Assembly (NCBI GenBank): GCA_965199825.1 | Contig: OZ241329.1 | Coordinates: 2,432,001-2,496,000 of the forward strand | From: Bdellovibrionales bacterium | Lineage (GTDB): Bacteria > Bdellovibrionota > Bdellovibrionia > Bdellovibrionales > UBA1609 | Length of the DNA stretch: 64,000 nt | Direction: 5' to 3' | Shown: positions 38,486-51,731 of the stretch, piece after piece | How positions within the stretch are numbered: the first letter of the stretch is position 1 | Layout of the letters: every line of letters starts with the position of its first letter | Program-made: the position numbers and the translations under genes | Notes under the pieces: generated by a model | The model's input: only the letters and a program-made list of their open reading frames with translations | Database searches by the model: none | Told to the model about the DNA's origin: nothing

Positions 38486-39050
38486 ATGAAAATCTTTATT
38501 CTCTCCGCATTCATAGTGTTTCTAGCTTTTGCTCAAAAATGCTTTTTGCATTTTGCTTTTGCAAAGTACGGCTAGGTTATTATCAAGTCCAAGATCATTT
38601 TGTCACTCAGCTTGGAGCAGATGAAGCCAAAGAAAATTTTGGAAAATTATTGCCGGCCGCTATTTAAAGAATCTTCACATCTGGCATACCCTGCCACCAA
38701 ATGATGAAATTGGACTTTGGATGGCATTCTATCCTGCGGCGATCGTTAATGCTGTTTTTGTCGCAATGAGCCTCGGGGCGTATCGCATGAATTCCAAATC
38801 TATAAATCAGCTTTGGCCGATAGTTGAATTTGCGAATAGTCATCGCGATGAACTCGAAATCTTTGGCATTCAAATTCCAATATTACCTTTCACACAAAAT
38901 TTATGGAGATCAAAGAATTTACTCAATCGATGGCGGAGCCGCAAAATATTTATTGAAAAAGTGAGATCTCAGAATGCGGAAGTGTTTCATTTCATTCGAG
39001 AGATTGCTTATCTCGATATCGCTATTGCAATCGCAGATTCGTTTCTTTAG
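38486..39050 (+). pseudogene. Degraded paralog of the 43706-44437 gene
   Basis: MKIFIL...AFAQ; GYYQVQDHFVTQLGADEAKENFGKLLPAAI*; internal deletion; then YRMNSKSINQLWPI...EIAYLDIAIAIA. Confidence 0.85.
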
Positions 39051-40855: not shown

Positions 40856-41674
40856 TCAGTTCAATCGGGTATCGAGAAATTGGGCGCACCTTTGTCGGTT
40901 CGCCTCATGATAGATTTTTTTACCTAAGTGAGCAGCTTTTAGAAGGGCGTTCTCCAAAAAAGAAAAATCATTAGATTGATCAGGATAATTTCTATTAATA
41001 AGATCTTGATGGTGATTGATTCGGGTTATGAAATCCACAAAATGTTTCGCCCCATAGCTAAGTTGAGACAAAGCTTGCTCTCTCGAAACATTAAGGGCTT
41101 CGCTATTCTCACTAATAAATAAAACAATCTCGGCCTCGTCGAGATGTAATAGCTCGGTTGCTTTCACCAACCCTTGAATCATAATAAAAGATTCGTGTGA
41201 TCGATCCATTTCAACACTGAGTTGTTGTTCAATTTCTGTTCGTATTCGATCCGCATATGAAATTGGCTCGCTTTGCTGCTCATGAGTTAGCTTTCCTAAA
41301 CGGAAACGGTCAACAAGGTAGTGGAGGAGTTCGTGGAGGACGTCACCATTTTCTGGCTGGGCGGGAAGTAAAATATGCGGATATTTTCTGATATGCAGTG
41401 GCAAAAGAGATTTATATGCAGGTATGTAGAGAGCATAATCACTTTCATACTTTCTAAAAAAAAGCAGATCTGCATCACTGTCACGTTTATCGCGCCAAAT
41501 AGGATTTTCACCGATGAGATGAATTCGAAGATCTGTAAAATTCGCTTTAATCTCTCGTAATAAAATGGGTATCGAAGAATTTTTGGCTATTTCTAGCAAG
41601 ACACTTCGATCTTCAGGGCGAAGGTCTAAACCATAACCGGGGAGTGCGAGAAGTATAAGCAAGAGGAACATCAT
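40856..41674 (-). CDS. Secreted HExxH (zincin-like) protein
   Basis: Signal peptide; VLHELLH; downstream DEAE; ATGA overlap with upstream gene. Confidence 0.65.
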   Translation of the reverse strand: MMFLLLILLALPGYGLDLRPEDRSVLLEIAKNSSIPILLREIKANFTDLRIHLIGENPIWRDKRDSDADLLFFRKYESDYALYIPAYKSLLPLHIRKYPHILLPAQPENGDVLHELLHYLVDRFRLGKLTHEQQSEPISYADRIRTEIEQQLSVEMDRSHESFIMIQGLVKATELLHLDEAEIVLFISENSEALNVSREQALSQLSYGAKHFVDFITRINHHQDLINRNYPDQSNDFSFLENALLKAAHLGKKIYHEANRQRCAQFLDTRLN

Positions 41675-43705: not shown

Positions 43706-44437
43706 ATGAAAATTCTATTGGTATTTTTTGTGTTTCCAGCTTTCGCCCAAAATGAGTATTGTCTCTCACTTTTGCAGAATCCAGATGGTTATTATCATAT
43801 TCAAGATAATTTTATGACCCAGGTGGGAGCGGATGAAGCAAAAGAAAAATTTGGAAAACTATCGCCAGCAACTCTTCGTAGAATCGAAAGCTATGTCGAT
43901 ATTTTTGGTAAAAACCCACATCTACTTTCGAGCATCAAACGAGGTCTTTCTACGTTTCCTTCATTGAGCAAAAGCAATTCGAGATTCGCAATCCATATGT
44001 TGTCTCTGAAAAGTCAATGGCCAATGTCATCCGCAATCGTGGTAGGAGATTTAGCATTGCTCTATTATTTGTACAGCTTGCCTCCTAACAACGATTTTTT
44101 TATTTTGTTGTCCACATACCCTGTTGCCTTCGTCAATATTACCTACGCGGGAATGTCCGTGGGAAATTATCGTATGAACTCCAAATCAATCAACCGGCTC
44201 TGGCCGATATTTGAATTTGTAAATGATCATCAACATGAATTTGAAGCCTTCGACATTCAAATTCCAAGATTGCCATTTGCAGAAAATTTGTGGCGCTCAA
44301 AAAGCCCATTTGAGCGATTGCGAAGCCGGCGAATATTTATCTCTCAGGTTAGAAATCACAATCCAGAATTACTTCAGCTAATTCAGGAAATTGCTTTTCT
44401 TGATATTGCTGCGGCAATTGCTACCCCGACTGATTAA
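43706..44437 (+). CDS. Secreted/membrane hypothetical protein
   Basis: Signal ending AFA; two central hydrophobic segments; degraded paralog at 38486. Confidence 0.75.
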   Translation: MKILLVFFVFPAFAQNEYCLSLLQNPDGYYHIQDNFMTQVGADEAKEKFGKLSPATLRRIESYVDIFGKNPHLLSSIKRGLSTFPSLSKSNSRFAIHMLSLKSQWPMSSAIVVGDLALLYYLYSLPPNNDFFILLSTYPVAFVNITYAGMSVGNYRMNSKSINRLWPIFEFVNDHQHEFEAFDIQIPRLPFAENLWRSKSPFERLRSRRIFISQVRNHNPELLQLIQEIAFLDIAAAIATPTD

Positions 44438-44957: not shown

Positions 44958-45004
44958 ATCACTCTGCAGTTGCGAAAATAAAATACTCAGTGATATTTCG
45001 AACT

Positions 45005-45802
45005 ATGTTCAAAATCATTTTTTTTATAATTTTAAAGGCGCAAGCCCTTGAACTGAGCCCCAGTGACATCAATGCCTTTTTTCAGATTGGACGTAGTCCA
45101 AATTTAGCTGAACTTTATCAAACAGCAGCGCGAACTTTTCCGGAATTAAAAATTGTGGTTTTGGGAGAACACCCTCAATGGTGGGATCGTCAAATCAGCA
45201 AAAAAGATTATGAGAATTTTAAAACCAGTTCTGACCTTATTATCAATTATCTACCTGCCTTTTCAAATGATTCGCCCATGACTCTTCGTGAGCATCCACG
45301 AATAGTCATCTCGTCTGCTGCCGACAGGGCCGATGCCCTTTTTTTGATTCTCAACTATCTGGTTGATCGCAATCGATCAGCTCGCGTTCCGGATCATAGA
45401 GCAATTTCATACTTTGATTTTTTAAGGGAGCAATTCGCAGATAAAATCGCGGCCGAACCTGATTACAAAAACAAATTTATGGTTTGGACCGAAGAGGTTT
45501 TTACCGCTGCGGATCTCACTCTCTTGAGTAAAGCCGAAATCAGTCTTTTTTTGATAGAAAATCGAGACGTCTTAAAGCTTTCGTTAGCCGAAATATTAGT
45601 CCAAAAGGCGGTGGCCAAAGATTATGTCAGAAAGTTTCAAGAGAGAATCATCAAACATTTTGATTCTCTAGATAAACGATATATTCCAAGCCCTGTTTAT
45701 CTGATGTACTTTAAACAGTGGATTAAAATATCAAGGCTCGATAAACAGATAAAAAAGATCGATCGGGCCAACGCCTGTTCAATTTATCTCAAAGACTTAT
45801 GA
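45005..45802 (+). CDS. Secreted paralog of the 40856-41674 zincin-like protein, lacking HExxH
   Basis: Colinear similarity (GEHPQWWDR/GENPIWRDK; YLVDRNR/YLVDRFR; ISYFD/ISYAD; AEISLFLIEN/AEIVLFISEN). Confidence 0.75.
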   Translation: MFKIIFFIILKAQALELSPSDINAFFQIGRSPNLAELYQTAARTFPELKIVVLGEHPQWWDRQISKKDYENFKTSSDLIINYLPAFSNDSPMTLREHPRIVISSAADRADALFLILNYLVDRNRSARVPDHRAISYFDFLREQFADKIAAEPDYKNKFMVWTEEVFTAADLTLLSKAEISLFLIENRDVLKLSLAEILVQKAVAKDYVRKFQERIIKHFDSLDKRYIPSPVYLMYFKQWIKISRLDKQIKKIDRANACSIYLKDL

Positions 45803-46821: not shown

Positions 46822-49041
46822 ATGCTGATCAGCTCGTTACTTTTGCTTCTCACTTTCGCAAACGCCGAACTTAAAGATCAAAAAGGCCCAAGCCCAAAAC
46901 CTGGACAAGAAAACTTTGAATATGTTTTTGGCCGCCCTGTTCGTGAAGACGAAATGACCTACAATAAATATCGAAAACTTCATATGGATCGCACCGCAAA
47001 AAAATTAGGCGTCTCGCCTGAGGTCATCGGTGACGGAATGGATACGTGGCATTGGTGGGTAGGAGTGGACAACCCAGGATTTTGGACCGATCTCGCACAA
47101 CTCTCCCAAAGCTCACACAATTTCACAAATCTTCGGATCGACCTTTTAAGACTTTTAATGGTTGTTCCGCGCAGCGAGCGATTTTCAAAACTAGGAATCA
47201 TTAATGACCCTGATACGGTTGCTGCAGATAAACCAGATCAGTTTGGTTTAAAACTCGATCGTATGAAGGATGGAACTCTTCAGTGGGATCCTGAAAAGTT
47301 TGGCTATTCCAGTGGCGTCATTGGAGTGCAACTCTTTAAGAATGAAAAATTTGATCCCAAAAATTGGTCGGCCGAAGAATATATTAATGGCGGCAAAAAA
47401 ATGGAAGCCCCTTACAAAGTGGGTATGGCCTGCGTGTTTTGCCATGTGAGCTTTAACCCACTCAATCCCCCAGTTAATTTGAGCGAACCCAAATGGGAAA
47501 ATATCACATCGACCTTTGGTAATCAGTATCTGCGCGAGGGACTCGCCTTTGGATTCAATCAACCCGATAATTCAATTGTCTCTCACTACTTAAGAACTCA
47601 AGAACCAGGCACCAGTGAGACTTCGCGCTTTCCCACCGACTCAATCAATAATCCCACAAACATCAATGCAATCCTTCGTTTGGGTGATCGCTTAAAAGTT
47701 GCCCATGTGGAAAAAATCACCAAAGCTCAAGCGGCACTGATCAAATCAATGTATAAAAATGCGGGCCTTCCTTTAGATTCGGTAGCGGGTGTACTTGGCG
47801 GTACCGATGAAAATCCAACCCTCAAAGTCCCCCATGTTTTAACCGACGGCGCAGATTCAATGGGTCTTTTGATGGCTTCGGTCAGGGTCTATGTGAACGA
47901 AGGTATGATGCACGCCGATTGGTATTCGACCTGGCCAGTGAATCTGTTTGATCTAAAATCAAGTTTGCGTCGTGGGTTTAAACCGCAAGAATTTGATATC
48001 ATGAATAAAGAAAGAAAAGATCCCAACAGCCCCTGGATGCAGACCGAACGCCGAATGCCCAACATGGCGACCTTTTTAATGTCTTATGATTCGTTCCCGC
48101 TCAAAGATGCGCCCGGCGGATTATCTTACCTAAAAAGTGATGAGCATATTTTGGGCGAAGGAAAGCGAGTGTTTGCCGACAACTGTGCAAGTTGCCACTC
48201 AAGTAAAACACCGCATTCAAATCACCCTGATCAAAAGCGGGCTTGGCGCGAGTTGGTCAATCAACCCGATTTTTTACGAGATAATTATTTATCCGATGAT
48301 GCTCGTCACTCAGTAGAAGAGATCGGGACAAATGTTCAGCGCGCCATGGGATCAAACGCGATGGCGGGATCCACATGGGGTCAGATGTCGAGTCAAACCT
48401 ACAAGGAAGAACGTACGCCGATGATCACCCTCAAAAATTTGTATAACCCTCTGACCGAAAAGTTTGATTTGCAGTATAAGGGACACCAAGCTTTTTATCG
48501 CACTCCGACCTTGGTGAGCATATGGGCCTCGGCTCCTTATTTTCATAATAACTCGTTAGGAAAATACACCGGCGATCCTTCCGTGAAAGGACGAATGGAG
48601 GCTTATCAAGATGCGGCTGAAAAATTGTTGTGGCCCGAAAAACGCGAAGGCATACGCTCAGTCAAACGCACAACCCAAAAAACCAGTCTCCCCGATATTT
48701 TTCCCGGATTGAAAGAGCATTTAAGATCTTTTGATGCCATGACTCTCGAAATCTTTGAATTGCCCGCGGGCACTCCAGTCAATCTGTTGATGAATTTTAA
48801 TCCAAAACATGTGGGTTCTGTTTTAGAGGCTTATGTCAAAGGTGTGGTGGGTGGAAAATCAAAGAGCGAATTTAAAAGCCTAATTAATCGACGTCGAGAA
48901 GCCGGTATCGAAGCCGCTAAGAATAAACTCTTAGAACTCAACACATGTCCCGATTTTATCGAAGACAAAGGTCACACCTTTGGATCCGATCTCAGTGATA
49001 AAGAGAAATTTGCACTCATTGAATATATGAAACACTTTTAG
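46822..49041 (+). CDS. Secreted diheme c-type cytochrome, RoxA/MauG/bCcP superfamily
   Basis: Signal peptide; CVFCH and CASCH; YRTPTLVSIWASAPYFHNNS; C-terminal GHTFG...ALIEYMK. Confidence 0.85.
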   Translation: MLISSLLLLLTFANAELKDQKGPSPKPGQENFEYVFGRPVREDEMTYNKYRKLHMDRTAKKLGVSPEVIGDGMDTWHWWVGVDNPGFWTDLAQLSQSSHNFTNLRIDLLRLLMVVPRSERFSKLGIINDPDTVAADKPDQFGLKLDRMKDGTLQWDPEKFGYSSGVIGVQLFKNEKFDPKNWSAEEYINGGKKMEAPYKVGMACVFCHVSFNPLNPPVNLSEPKWENITSTFGNQYLREGLAFGFNQPDNSIVSHYLRTQEPGTSETSRFPTDSINNPTNINAILRLGDRLKVAHVEKITKAQAALIKSMYKNAGLPLDSVAGVLGGTDENPTLKVPHVLTDGADSMGLLMASVRVYVNEGMMHADWYSTWPVNLFDLKSSLRRGFKPQEFDIMNKERKDPNSPWMQTERRMPNMATFLMSYDSFPLKDAPGGLSYLKSDEHILGEGKRVFADNCASCHSSKTPHSNHPDQKRAWRELVNQPDFLRDNYLSDDARHSVEEIGTNVQRAMGSNAMAGSTWGQMSSQTYKEERTPMITLKNLYNPLTEKFDLQYKGHQAFYRTPTLVSIWASAPYFHNNSLGKYTGDPSVKGRMEAYQDAAEKLLWPEKREGIRSVKRTTQKTSLPDIFPGLKEHLRSFDAMTLEIFELPAGTPVNLLMNFNPKHVGSVLEAYVKGVVGGKSKSEFKSLINRRREAGIEAAKNKLLELNTCPDFIEDKGHTFGSDLSDKEKFALIEYMKHF

Positions 49042-49051
49042 GAGAACTCAA

Positions 49052-49348
49052 ATGATTTGGCTTTTGTTCATCACATCTCTTTATGCAGAAACACATAAGA
49101 TAAACATGAAGAGTTTAAGTTTTGATCCAAATAAAATAGAACTTAAAATCGGCGATGCGGTTGAGTGGATCAATCAATCCTTTACCGAACATTCTGCAAC
49201 AAGCGCTGATAAAAAATTTGATACTGGATTAATCAAGCCTAAAAAATCATCGCAAAAGATTTCATTCCGTGAGCCCGGCACCTATGTTTACCAATGTGCA
49301 GTTCATGGCAAAACAATGAGCGGAGAGATTACGGTTAGCGCCCGATGA
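49052..49348 (+). CDS. Type-1 blue copper protein (amicyanin/plastocyanin-like)
   Basis: FDP..I.LK.GD.VEW.N; EHSAT; YQCAVHGKTM gives H,C,H,M ligands. Confidence 0.92.
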   Translation: MIWLLFITSLYAETHKINMKSLSFDPNKIELKIGDAVEWINQSFTEHSATSADKKFDTGLIKPKKSSQKISFREPGTYVYQCAVHGKTMSGEITVSAR

Positions 49349-50703
49349 ATGAGATTTATAACAAACTCAAAAACGGATTAAATAATAATGAGCGCGGCTA
49401 CGAGTGGCGCGTCGATCAGCTCCAAAAACTTAAAATTTTGCTCACCGACAATGATCAACAGCTCTGCGAAGCTTTATGGAAAGATTTAAAAAAAAGCACT
49501 TTCGAATGCCAGGCCACCGAACAAGGTGTGGTGCTTGGAGAAATTGACGATTGCTTAAAGCATTTAAAAAAATGGATGAGGCCCCAAAAAGTCTCAACTC
49601 CACTCTATAATTTACCCGGATGGACCCACATCTCCTATGAGCCCTATGGGTTAGCTCTGATTATCGGAGCTTGGAATTATCCCATCAACCTGACACTTGC
49701 ACCTCTTGTGGGCGCAATTGCCGGCGGCAACGGTGCGATCATTAAGCCCTCAGAAATTTCGCAAAATACCGCCAAACTTTTAAGTGAACTGTTGCCCAGA
49801 TATCTCGATCCAGATTTATTTGCGGTGATCGAAGGTGGCGCTAAAGAAACCGATCAGCTTCTTGATTTTCAGTTCGACACCATTTTTTTTACCGGAAGTG
49901 GGCCGGTTGGAAAATTAATTTTGCAAAAGGCTGCGGTTCATCTCACACCAACCACACTTGAGCTTGGCGGAAAATCTCCTGCAATTGTTTTAGAGGATGC
50001 CGATCTCGAGGTCACCGCACGGAGACTCACCTGGGGAAAATTTTTAAATGCGGGCCAAACTTGCGTTGCTCCTGATTATATTCTTTGTCACAAAAGTATA
50101 AAATCGAAACTGATCGATCACCTGCGTGCGACCATCACCTCTTTTTATGGAACTGATGCAGCACTCAGTCCTGATTACTGCCGCATTATTAACCCTAAAA
50201 ATTTTGATCGACTAAAAAATCTTTCAGATGGAAACCGAATTCTTTTTGGCGGTGATTTTCGAAAACAGGATCTGTATATCTCACCGACTCTGATTGAGGG
50301 AAAGCTCGACTCTGCTCTTATGGCTGAGGAAATTTTTGGGCCACTGCTACCGATCATAGAATTCGAAAATTTAAACGAAGCTATCCAAATTATAAACTCG
50401 AAACCAAAACCGCTCAGTCTTTATCTCTTTACCAAAATGACAGATGCGATCAAAAATGTTGAGGCCAAAACTTCATCAGGCGCACTTGTGATCAATGATG
50501 TGGTGGTTCATATGCCAATGCCGAGTTTGCCATTTGGCGGAGTGGGAGCAAGCGGCATGGGTCATTATCACGGCGAATACAGTTTTAAAACATTCACCCA
50601 CGCAAAAGGGGTTTTGAGAAAATCCTATTGGTTTGATGTGCCCTTAAGATATCCTCCATATACAAAAAATAAAGCTCGAATCCTCAATTGGCTGTTTCGA
50701 TAA
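49345..50703 (+). CDS. Class-3 (fatty/coniferyl-type) aldehyde dehydrogenase
   Basis: AWNYP, KPSE, FTGS, LELGGKSP, NAGQTCVAPDY, EEIFGP, PFGGVGASGMGHYHG. Confidence 0.93.
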   Translation: MNEIYNKLKNGLNNNERGYEWRVDQLQKLKILLTDNDQQLCEALWKDLKKSTFECQATEQGVVLGEIDDCLKHLKKWMRPQKVSTPLYNLPGWTHISYEPYGLALIIGAWNYPINLTLAPLVGAIAGGNGAIIKPSEISQNTAKLLSELLPRYLDPDLFAVIEGGAKETDQLLDFQFDTIFFTGSGPVGKLILQKAAVHLTPTTLELGGKSPAIVLEDADLEVTARRLTWGKFLNAGQTCVAPDYILCHKSIKSKLIDHLRATITSFYGTDAALSPDYCRIINPKNFDRLKNLSDGNRILFGGDFRKQDLYISPTLIEGKLDSALMAEEIFGPLLPIIEFENLNEAIQIINSKPKPLSLYLFTKMTDAIKNVEAKTSSGALVINDVVVHMPMPSLPFGGVGASGMGHYHGEYSFKTFTHAKGVLRKSYWFDVPLRYPPYTKNKARILNWLFR

Positions 50704-51731
50704 TGAAAGAAAAATCTCACTTTGCACTTGTTCTTCCAGGTGCGGTTGCTCGAGGTGCTTACGAAGCGGGAGTGATCGAAGTTTTGAGCGAGCAAAAAAT
50801 CCAGATCGACCGCATTGTGGCTACAAGTTCAGGTGCTTTGAATGGATTGAGCTATGCGGTTGGTATTCGCAGCGGCCGCGAAACCAAAATGGCAAAAAAA
50901 TTGATCGACTCGTGGATCGCCAAAGGTGGATGGCACGAGTCGCTCAATATCAGTTTTTGGAGCCTTCTTCGGGGTAAAGGCCTATCAAATAAAGATAGTT
51001 TAATTAAGCTGATGCGCGAAATGATTCAACCTTGCACTTCGCAAAATAAAAAAGATGTTGAGCTCCGAATAATTGTGACTCCCCTAAACGGAGTGACTTC
51101 AAAAATCGGCAAAAATTCGGCGACCACCTTTGAACATGTGATCAGTTTTACAGGCGAGCAATTTGACACCCAAAAAGGTTTGGACGAGGTTTTCGAGGTG
51201 GTCGGTGCGGCCTGTGCATTTCCGGGATTATTTAGCCCGGTGGAGTTGCCAGGGCTTGGAGCTTGCGTTGATGGCGGTGCGGTGAACAACGCCCCCATCA
51301 AGTATGCACTCGAAGAATCAGGGGTCAATCGTGTGATGATGCCCGTGCCCTTTCCAGCAATGATGCCGCCAGGGGAATTTAAAAGTGGATTTGGTTTGCT
51401 CAATCATCTGATCGAAATATTGATTAATGAGCGTTTGTTTCGTGATCTACAAAACGCCCAGAGTGTGAACAAAGAGGCCGATCGACTTAAAACTTTGGTG
51501 GCTCAAGGAAAATTGAGCCAAGACCAACTCGAAATCATCCAAAATGAATTGTCGATTCGAAATGTTGAAATCACCGAGATCCGCCCGCAGACCGCCCAAA
51601 AGAGTAGTGCATTTTCAGGATTTTTTAATAAAGGTGATCGTGTGCAATTAGTGAAAGAAGGTCAAGAGGCCGCCCGCTTGGCACTTCAAAAAATTCCTGC
51701 GCACAATCCAAAAGGCAAACAGACAACTTAA
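50703..51731 (+). CDS. Patatin-like phospholipase
   Basis: LVLPGAVARGAYEAG, ATSSG (Ser nucleophile), AFPGLF, VDGG; TAATG coupling to ALDH stop. Confidence 0.88.
   Translation: MKEKSHFALVLPGAVARGAYEAGVIEVLSEQKIQIDRIVATSSGALNGLSYAVGIRSGRETKMAKKLIDSWIAKGGWHESLNISFWSLLRGKGLSNKDSLIKLMREMIQPCTSQNKKDVELRIIVTPLNGVTSKIGKNSATTFEHVISFTGEQFDTQKGLDEVFEVVGAACAFPGLFSPVELPGLGACVDGGAVNNAPIKYALEESGVNRVMMPVPFPAMMPPGEFKSGFGLLNHLIEILINERLFRDLQNAQSVNKEADRLKTLVAQGKLSQDQLEIIQNELSIRNVEITEIRPQTAQKSSAFSGFFNKGDRVQLVKEGQEAARLALQKIPAHNPKGKQTT

Follow-up and report, generated by a model that had tools for sequence, protein, structure and literature searches.

A secreted diheme enzyme from an undescribed branch of the bCcP/MauG/RoxA superfamily and the cross-phylum operon around it

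Why would a bacterium encode a secreted two-heme enzyme, a blue copper protein, an aldehyde dehydrogenase and a lipase one after the other? The question is raised by a stretch of 64,000 nucleotides ("the window") of contig OZ241329.1 from a Bdellovibrionales bacterium, in which four genes at positions 46822-51731 of the + strand encode these proteins in that order. A preliminary description of the window had read them as a pathway in which a patatin frees acyl chains, a RoxA/MauG-like diheme enzyme cleaves their C=C bonds, and a class-3 aldehyde dehydrogenase (ALDH) turns the aldehydes into acids. The comparison of loci reported here leads to a different emphasis. The window holds one version of an operon that recurs in several phyla and is built around a branch, so far undescribed, of a known superfamily, and the conserved core of this operon is the diheme enzyme, a cupredoxin and an aldehyde-handling enzyme; the patatin is not part of the core. 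An aldehyde is fairly likely to be the product, and as to the exact chemistry, an oxidation of carboxylic acids at the alpha carbon is tentatively preferred.

Which genes travel with the diheme enzyme?

The comparison covers 103 loci, 36 from GTDB genomes and 67 from metagenomes (best 80 of 555 matches), which fall into 59 clusters at 90% identity. When only the clusters with enough flank are counted, the frequencies are 36/46 for the cupredoxin, 22/36 for the class-3 ALDH (ALDH3), 14/31 for a lipase, and 7/36 for a thiamine diphosphate (ThDP) decarboxylase. The tally by lineage leaves out L033, L034 and L094, the tree leaves out L034 and rows <400 aa, and the lipase tally rests on three lipase queries. 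In the Bdellovibrionota clade, the cupredoxin accompanies the diheme gene at 21 of the 23 loci and so does the ALDH (one copy is partial and one is cut by a contig end). A lipase is found at 17 of these loci and is patatin A in eight, patatin B in seven and a Tle1-like lipase in two; the 23 loci include two pairs that share a genome, and of the six loci without a lipase, two are cut short. The 33 clusters of other lineages have the cupredoxin in 15/23 and ALDH3 in 5/16 with enough flank. A ThDP-dependent 2-oxo-acid decarboxylase occurs in 7/16 of them (10/33 regardless of flank). These decarboxylases are of two types, IPDC-like and benzoylformate-decarboxylase (BFD)-like, and often lie 33-230 nt downstream. 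A flavin mononucleotide (FMN)-dependent alpha-hydroxy-acid dehydrogenase lies upstream in 2/28 clusters, and two loci that lack the ALDH (L054 and L089) have molybdenum hydroxylase genes of the aldehyde-oxidoreductase type directly downstream. The co-location with ALDH and cupredoxin that had been expected from the window is thus conserved, and the full set with patatin A is not: it occurs at 7 of the 23 Bdellovibrionota-clade loci, and these lipases are absent from the 16 clusters elsewhere that have enough flank.

The lipases differ in position and orientation from locus to locus. Five genomes hold 3-5 patatins each per 3-4 Mb, and chance adjacency is roughly 1% per locus. The presence of three lipase types in several orientations argues for selection, with the reservation that related loci are not independent. 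This repeated recruitment in Bdellovibrionota upholds the link to lipids made in the preliminary description and, together with the superfamily assignment and the conserved company of a dedicated ALDH and a cupredoxin, supports an aldehyde-forming, lipid-linked role.

Other genes are seen near some copies of the operon. Respiratory genes adjoin it, namely alternative complex III-like genes (a label given by reading the sequences), cytochrome bd-like genes, and a COX1-family oxidase that is accompanied by an FMN hydroxy-acid dehydrogenase; the loci are listed in three groups (L018:11840-16136 and L036:66-5079; L032, L048, L090, L092 and L099; L035, L090 and L092). At L022, L048 and L080 a dihydrolipoyl-dehydrogenase-like flavoprotein joins the cupredoxin and the ALDH, and CoA-transferase III genes are close by at L055 and L057.

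How is the four-gene unit built?

The four open reading frames (ORFs) are co-directional, and their features are collected in Table 1, with lengths as in the ORF listing. The listing begins the patatin at a TTG at 50688; the ATG start is used here. All the genes, junctions and motifs named in the preliminary description are present. After the TAG stop of the diheme gene (49039-49041) comes a 10-nt gap, GAGAACTCAA. The sole correction concerns the GGAGA before the cupredoxin gene, the first base of which is the last base of that stop codon. The cupredoxin and ALDH genes overlap by ATGA (49345-49348), and the ALDH and patatin genes by TAATG (50701-50705). Since the flanking genes sit on the minus strand, pointing towards or away from the block, the unit is exactly four genes. 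The arrangement is more than chance because the gene order recurs across phyla; chance adjacency is ruled out by the synteny together with the ALDH tree described below.

Table 1. Positions in the window of the four genes and of the main motifs of the diheme protein
Feature	Position	Strand	Remarks
Secreted diheme c-type enzyme, 739 aa	46822..49041	+	Unnamed family within the bCcP/MauG/RoxA superfamily
Heme 1 motif CVFCH204-208	47431..47445	+	Invariant in 127/127 of the subfamily and 109/109 wider representatives
PGTSETSR262-269	47605..47628	+	Position 266 always acidic; candidate distal acid, placement near heme 1 inferred
LTDGADS...RVYVNE340-360	47839..47901	+	T341 at the likely inter-heme Trp place; R355, N359, E360
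Heme 2 motif CASCH455-459	48184..48198	+	
PYFHNNS572-578, MauG/RoxA motif	48535..48555	+	Aligned with the corresponding motif of RoxA (4B2N)
H718, likely sixth ligand of heme 2	48973..48975	+	Aligns with the RoxA C-terminal GH
Secreted type-1 cupredoxin, plastocyanin/amicyanin-like, 98 aa	49052..49348	+	Ligands H47, C82, H85, M89
Class-3 ALDH, 452 aa	49345..50703	+	Catalytic E206 and C240; without signal peptide
Patatin-like lipase, clade A, 342 aa	50703..51731	+	ATS42SG, D190GG, GAVARG

The host genome is 2.84 Mb and 100% complete, and the operon has the GC content of the genome (0.44). A public contig, which may be the source of the stretch, contains it unbroken and without differences. A second study offers contigs of low depth, in which the four genes show 28 differences, 24 of them synonymous. 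Judged by hydropathy, the diheme protein and the cupredoxin have hydrophobic N-termini ending in ANA and LYA. The ALDH has no such N-terminus, and the hydrophobic patch of the patatin is its first catalytic strand, in keeping with the earlier caveat that both lack signal peptides. Promoter and terminator scans of the sequence stayed at chance level (11 vs 10.2 and 10 vs 7.2). Upstream of the operon, two pairs of orphan ORFs look like paralogues by eye (38721-39050 with 43706-44437, and 40856-41674 with 44990-45802). The first copy of these pairs appears truncated, and the three ORFs that were scanned have no Pfam family above the cut-off.

To which family does the diheme protein belong?

The AlphaFold model of the diheme protein has a predicted local distance difference test score (pLDDT) of 86 and a predicted template-modelling score of 0.86. 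In a structural search of 48,161 chains, all seven matches at Z>=8 are members of the bCcP/MauG/RoxA superfamily, and the next match has a Z of 5.7. The scores are 11.7 for the gamma subunit of hydrazine synthase (root-mean-square deviation [rmsd] 4.4, 241 aligned), 10.5 for YhjA, 10.0 for MbnH, 9.9 for bCcP, 9.8 for MauG, 9.8 for RoxA (rmsd 4.9, 370 aligned) and 8.4 for BthA. The model thus supports the superfamily assignment made earlier and places the protein at about the same distance from each branch.

RoxA is the sole Foldseek match at E<=0.001 (2.7e-4, TM 0.33), and no other structure aligns with the model over so many residues (349-370, Z 9.4-9.8, rmsd 4.5-4.9). This speaks for the reading in which the diheme enzyme attacks unsaturated or isoprenoid chains at a C=C bond or next to it, by oxygenation or cleavage, either like RoxA or by PA2077-like hydroperoxidation and subsequent lyase chemistry, and so provides aldehydes for the ALDH. 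The lipase at 17 and the ALDH3 at 21 of the 23 Bdellovibrionota-clade loci would suit such an enzyme, as would a His/His heme 2 of the kind found in RoxA, RoxB and FadCcp. However, the gamma subunit of hydrazine synthase, YhjA, MbnH, bCcP and MauG have Z scores equal to or higher than that of RoxA. RoxA is reported to need its substrate and O2 only, with no other cosubstrate and no redox partner, and its O2 pocket to be lined by hydrophobic residues with no acid-base residues among them (PMC6311187, PMC6797691). RoxA-type cleavage gives no reason for the presence of the cupredoxin, of the decarboxylases or of the alpha-hydroxy-acid dehydrogenase. With the queries used, neither these loci nor the genome yielded a lipoxygenase or an NF040606-type partner. 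Cleavage at C=C bonds, which the preliminary description had favored, is therefore not the best fit and is on balance unlikely.

Sequence profiles give a similar picture. The protein falls in none of the named families of the superfamily. Membership of the RoxA group was rejected because the NCBIfam scores are far below the cut-offs (RoxA 21.5/1000, RoxB 28.1/900, RoxC 27.6/900). Pfam PF21419 scores 26.5 bits vs a cut-off of 26.7, cytochrome c families are likewise below threshold, and no PF03150 match was found at E<=0.05. NF040606 reaches 49 bits vs a cut-off of 150 (33 bits in the genome search), and a profile of the diheme family matches an NF040606-type family with a probability of 98.8% (E 1e-16).

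A MauG-type maturase was also considered and rejected, since H718 takes the place of Tyr and the inter-heme Trp is missing. No genes for target enzymes with tryptophan tryptophylquinone (TTQ) or cysteine tryptophylquinone were found among the recurrent neighbors of the 103 loci, many of which are short.

The family is large and thinly spread. Scoring of 8000 candidates gave 358 homologues; the 120 best are 54-76% identical, and none is functionally named. A profile search at E<=1e-30 gives 403 clusters (50% identity), among which the close subfamily is represented by essentially a single full-length sequence, and the ESM Atlas returns hypothetical or cytochrome-c clusters only. A look at longer homologues (1268-3620 aa) gave the weak negative that no fusion occurs in 3508 candidates. 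The nearest diheme relatives are in Bdellovibrionota. The gene is rare in the phylum of the window, at 2/301 genomes with this one counted. In the phylum of Singulisphaera it occurs in 3/251 genomes, two of them with distant members, and one copy is in the cultured Singulisphaera acidiphila DSM 18658 (L032). Such a rare and patchy distribution means that the enzyme is not a general mechanism of predation. In two genomes (L002/L008 and L012/L036), two divergent diheme copies are each found with different partners. A search of the literature that reached few subscription journals turned up no published description of the family or the operon, in agreement with the earlier remark that no pathway with this gene set is described.

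What do the conserved residues suggest?

Counts for the wider family refer to those 109 of the 149 representatives listed that reach 600 aa and have both CxxCH motifs; L021, which is frameshifted, was left out of alignments A2 and A4. By analogy with RoxA and bCcP, heme 1 is likely the catalytic heme. Heme 2 is likely a His/His transfer heme comparable to that of RoxA (H394/H641), because H718 aligns with the C-terminal His of RoxA. This residue is conserved in 126/127 sequences of the subfamily and in 101/109 of the wider family; it belongs to GH717-718, and ALIEY is present at the C-terminus.

The inter-heme Trp is missing in either candidate register. Position 341 is T, A, S or M in 127/127 sequences, and a Trp stands at this place in at most 1/76 motif matches of the wider family. 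A set of polar residues is kept instead. Position 266 is E in 127/127 of the subfamily and D (96) or E (13) among the 109 wider representatives, R355 is kept in 109/109 and N359 in 108/109 of these, and E360 is found in 127/127 of the close subfamily and is particular to it. The motif register would put this invariant Arg, Asp/Glu and Asn set where RoxA is apolar, with L340 and R355/V356 at the places of RoxA F301 and F317; these residues speak against a RoxA-like site only if they line heme 1. The two more diverse profiles align VLTDGADS to LHWDGNNDS of an NF040606-type family (probability 98.8%), whereas the narrow profile and the bCcP profile align this stretch differently. In the profile alignment to 25 bCcP-type sequences, FWDG falls onto LGDR and not onto LTDG, with a Trp at neither place. 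The structural comparison with RoxA, MauG and BthA proposed earlier confirmed the superfamily fold, and the registers that the alignments give at heme 1 disagree. When a fragment from V336 was folded, its first 12 residues had a pLDDT <50, and the start points differed (RoxA 288, MauG 69, BthA 226). Several copies are frameshifted or partial, by assembly error or by decay (L021, L026, L029, L031, L034, L060 and the L011 ALDH).

The same residues are relevant to a second explanation, in which the enzyme is a periplasmic hydroperoxide reductase. Electrons would pass from the cupredoxin through heme 2 to H2O2 or lipid hydroperoxides, and the lipase and ALDH3 would clear oxidized lipids and aldehydes. 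Peroxide reduction is the default of the superfamily, and BthA is reported to carry it out without the Trp (PMC6405878). The conserved polar residues agree with this, E360 is offset by a single position from the Glu of bCcP when the motif register is used, and genes for Ku, catalase, DyP, cytochrome bd and hemA are found in the neighborhoods. On the other hand, the PF03150 match is missing, and the Gln and Pro of the peroxidase triad appear to be replaced by Met and Arg (M351/R355/E360-G361 in the motif offset, on which automatic alignments disagree). A reductase also explains a decarboxylase 33 nt downstream and a dedicated ALDH lineage less well than an aldehyde-forming enzyme does, and it is considered rather unlikely.

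What do the partner proteins add?

Each partner is above its Pfam cut-off (PF13473/PF00127 for the cupredoxin, PF00171 for the ALDH and PF01734 for the patatin). The cupredoxin has a full type-1 copper site that is kept in the full-length homologues listed. A prediction of its complex with the diheme protein was a weak pass, at 0.56 vs 0.00 for the best control. The mark was reached by 116/157 solved pairs and 2/215 mismatched pairs in calibration, but those that did so with a score <=0.60 were only 18 of the 157 solved pairs and both of the mismatched ones. Agreement between the runs is at least 0% of contacts, with a partner pLDDT of at least 81.

The best PDB match of the ALDH is human fatty aldehyde dehydrogenase (FALDH; 4QGK, 446 bits), followed by ALDH3A1 (430-435 bits) and MdlD (343 bits). 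Class-3 ALDHs that are unlinked occur in 20/60 relatives, and in a FastTree tree a 99% split puts the 25 linked ALDHs on one side and 20 unlinked ones on the other. The linked branch is common to Bdellovibrionota and Planctomycetes. Pairwise identities follow those of the diheme protein with a rho of 0.82 for the ALDH, 0.72 for the decarboxylase and 0.37 for the cupredoxin, values that include related, non-independent loci. This dedicated, FALDH-like ALDH on its own branch fits the role in oxidizing long-chain aldehydes that had been assigned to it. The patatin scores 90 bits vs 27.7 with S42 and D190 present; its elbow (ATSSG) and loop (GAVARG) are variants.

A blue copper partner also brings a third explanation to mind. 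Methylamine dehydrogenase passes its electrons to amicyanin, and partnerships with amicyanin or azurin are familiar. The diheme enzyme could accordingly be a periplasmic dehydrogenase of amines, amino acids or 2-hydroxy acids, which would form aldehydes or 2-oxo acids and feed electrons to the cupredoxin, with the lipases as passengers. The amicyanin-like partner in 36/46 clusters is consistent with this, as are the respiratory complexes beside some loci and the combination of decarboxylase and ALDH, which is the route for amino acids and mandelate. W76-H77-W78-W79 is invariant within the subfamily and could host a protein-derived cofactor. However, the conservation of H77 and W78 does not extend to the wider family, no mauAB-type partner is among the recurrent neighbors, and passenger status hardly suits three lipase types recruited at 17/23 loci. 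The queries used found no homologue of IPDC, BFD, FMN hydroxy-acid dehydrogenase, GMC oxidoreductase or NF040606-type protein in the genome of the window. This means that an aldehyde in this organism must come from the diheme step or from elsewhere. A dehydrogenase is therefore improbable, and a small chance is left for readings other than those discussed here.

Could the operon shorten carboxylic acids by one carbon?

Taken across the readings, an oxidation that yields aldehydes is fairly likely, since it best explains a dedicated ALDH and its replacements. The chemistry that is tentatively preferred is the oxidation of carboxylic (fatty) acids at the alpha carbon by the secreted diheme enzyme, giving aldehydes one carbon shorter (n-1). 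No other scheme was found in which every recurrent neighbor has a use, including the 2-oxo-acid decarboxylases and the alpha-hydroxy-acid dehydrogenase. It would also explain the invariant Arg, as in CYP152 peroxygenases (PMC5818669) and alpha-dioxygenases (PMC8720084).

In this scheme, the patatin would likely free a fatty acid, and a five-coordinate heme 1 would activate O2 or H2O2. R355 would hold the carboxylate of the substrate, as the Arg of CYP152 peroxygenases does, with E266 as the acid-base residue. The resulting 2-hydroperoxy, 2-hydroxy or 2-oxo acid would lose CO2, spontaneously in Bdellovibrionota and through the ThDP decarboxylase in other lineages. The class-3 ALDH would then likely turn the shortened aldehyde back into an acid, while the His/His heme 2 would exchange electrons with the cupredoxin in either direction; acids and aldehydes would have to pass through the inner membrane. 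Non-predators may use the enzyme on a short or aryl acid and not on a lipid. The scheme has precedents. Alpha-dioxygenase is reported to yield an n-1 aldehyde and a 2-hydroxy acid (PMC8720084), an Arg-carboxylate clamp to drive alpha-hydroxylation in CYP152 (PMC5818669), and PA2077, a diheme relative, to oxygenate oleate (PMC4496055).

Several points weigh against alpha-oxidation. The placement of R355 and E266 over heme 1 rests on the motif register, and the bCcP profile led to a different one. The known substrates of IPDC- and BFD-type enzymes are 2-oxo acids that are short or aromatic, and a true alpha-dioxygenase requires no electron carrier. The diheme protein and cupredoxin are in a different compartment from the ALDH and patatin. 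Lipases and decarboxylases are never found together (no decarboxylase at 23 Bdellovibrionota-clade loci, none of these lipases in 16 clusters elsewhere), a separation that may reflect two different substrates. There is also a well-supported diheme clade of nine rows without a cupredoxin (L060, L031, L050, L057, L062, L070, L075, L053 and L024), and 7/16 clusters outside Bdellovibrionota have neither an ALDH3 nor a decarboxylase nearby. G050 has patatin A with no diheme gene beside it, though its absence from the whole genome is not certain, and G245 has the diheme gene without patatin A. Many loci lie among general-stress and respiratory genes, so these genes may travel together for other reasons.

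In several members of the cupredoxin-less clade, an IPDC-like gene follows at a distance of 33-230 nt; in L054, the molybdenum hydroxylase genes take this downstream place.

Distant homologues provide a further view of the substrate. On rhizobial plasmids, homologues of 27-31% identity lie beside two NF040606-related dihemes, a GMC oxidoreductase, a patatin and a flavin oxidoreductase (2/3 regions). Such a cluster looks like an undescribed oxylipin pathway, which is a point in favor of oxygenation at a C=C bond. Also in its favor, RoxB is reported to cleave rubber without the Trp (V294; PMC6311187). The company of patatin, GMC and diheme genes suggests that the link to lipids is old in the diheme family, and it is also counted in favor of alpha-oxidation.

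The cluster is seen at L040:3870-16222, L041, L165 and L166, with a GMC-patatin fusion in L166, and on Rhizobium pRL11 (RL_RS32240-32270). In Mesorhizobium (L042:1-2594), genes for a LodA/GoxA-family oxidase and a PvdP-like tyrosinase are upstream of a distant homologue.

Why does the operon matter?

The characterized branches of the superfamily differ in their chemistry, which includes peroxide reduction, TTQ synthesis, rubber cleavage, oleate oxygenation and nitric oxide reduction. Here is a large branch for which no description was found, and its subfamily is accompanied by a partner for electrons, a sink for the product and suppliers of substrate that are swapped between lineages. If aldehydes are indeed made from fatty acids, the operon would add a bacterial route of alpha-oxidation and a biocatalyst for fatty aldehydes. 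One could go further and see in it a c-type diheme alpha-oxidase, the first enzyme of the superfamily to take one carbon off carboxylic acids, tied to a blue-copper carrier of its own and forming the core of a modular bacterial pathway of alpha-oxidation. This larger picture is doubtful. If true, Bdellovibrionota would add lipases for acyl chains of prey lipids that resist beta-oxidation, and soil bacteria would add ThDP decarboxylases.

How does it compare with known systems?

With bCcP, MauG, BthA, MbnH and the gamma subunit of hydrazine synthase, the diheme protein shares the core fold (Z 8.4-11.7, rmsd 3.8-4.9), and with BthA the missing inter-heme Trp. The gamma subunit of hydrazine synthase is described as having a bis-His transfer heme fed by a partner (PMC12607021). 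Unlike the bCcP/MauG group, the protein has no PF03150 match, is about twice the size and likely has His, not Met or Tyr, on heme 2; the Gln/Pro/Glu triad of bCcP is not evident.

RoxA and RoxB (PDB 4B2N; NF050033, NF050034) resemble it in size class, secretion, two widely spaced CxxCH motifs, the PYFH-N motif, a likely His/His heme 2, the fold (Z 9.4-9.8) and the aldehyde-type product expected. The differences are a heme spacing of 251 vs 199 residues in RoxA, an invariant Arg and acid where no Phe pair is evident, and the dedicated cupredoxin and ALDH.

For the proposed chemistry, the systems that work alike are fatty-acid alpha-dioxygenase with FALDH and the CYP152 peroxygenases, a comparison that implies no membership. 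The mandelate pathway (MdlB/MdlC/MdlD) has the same set of partners, namely an alpha-hydroxy-acid dehydrogenase, a ThDP decarboxylase and a class-3 ALDH. All of these differ from the diheme operon in having unrelated folds and heme types.

The comparison with FadCcp of Pseudomonas aeruginosa (PA2077/PA2078; NF040606-type), which the preliminary description had missed in choosing RoxA, is closer. PA2077 was compared by its published description, and the alignment was to the NF040606-type family. The pair is reported to be an oleate 10S-dioxygenase and a 7,10-diol synthase, which oxygenate oleate and isomerize the hydroperoxide outside the cytoplasm, with His/His ligation, a heme spacing of 235-245 and a polar pocket. 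It differs in that PA2077 keeps the Trp and in being an enzyme pair for which the part of the report consulted describes no cupredoxin or ALDH (PMC4496055). Both systems have an extracytoplasmic diheme protein that acts, or in the operon likely acts, on free fatty acids, and PA2077 is the closest functional precedent, nearer than RoxA.

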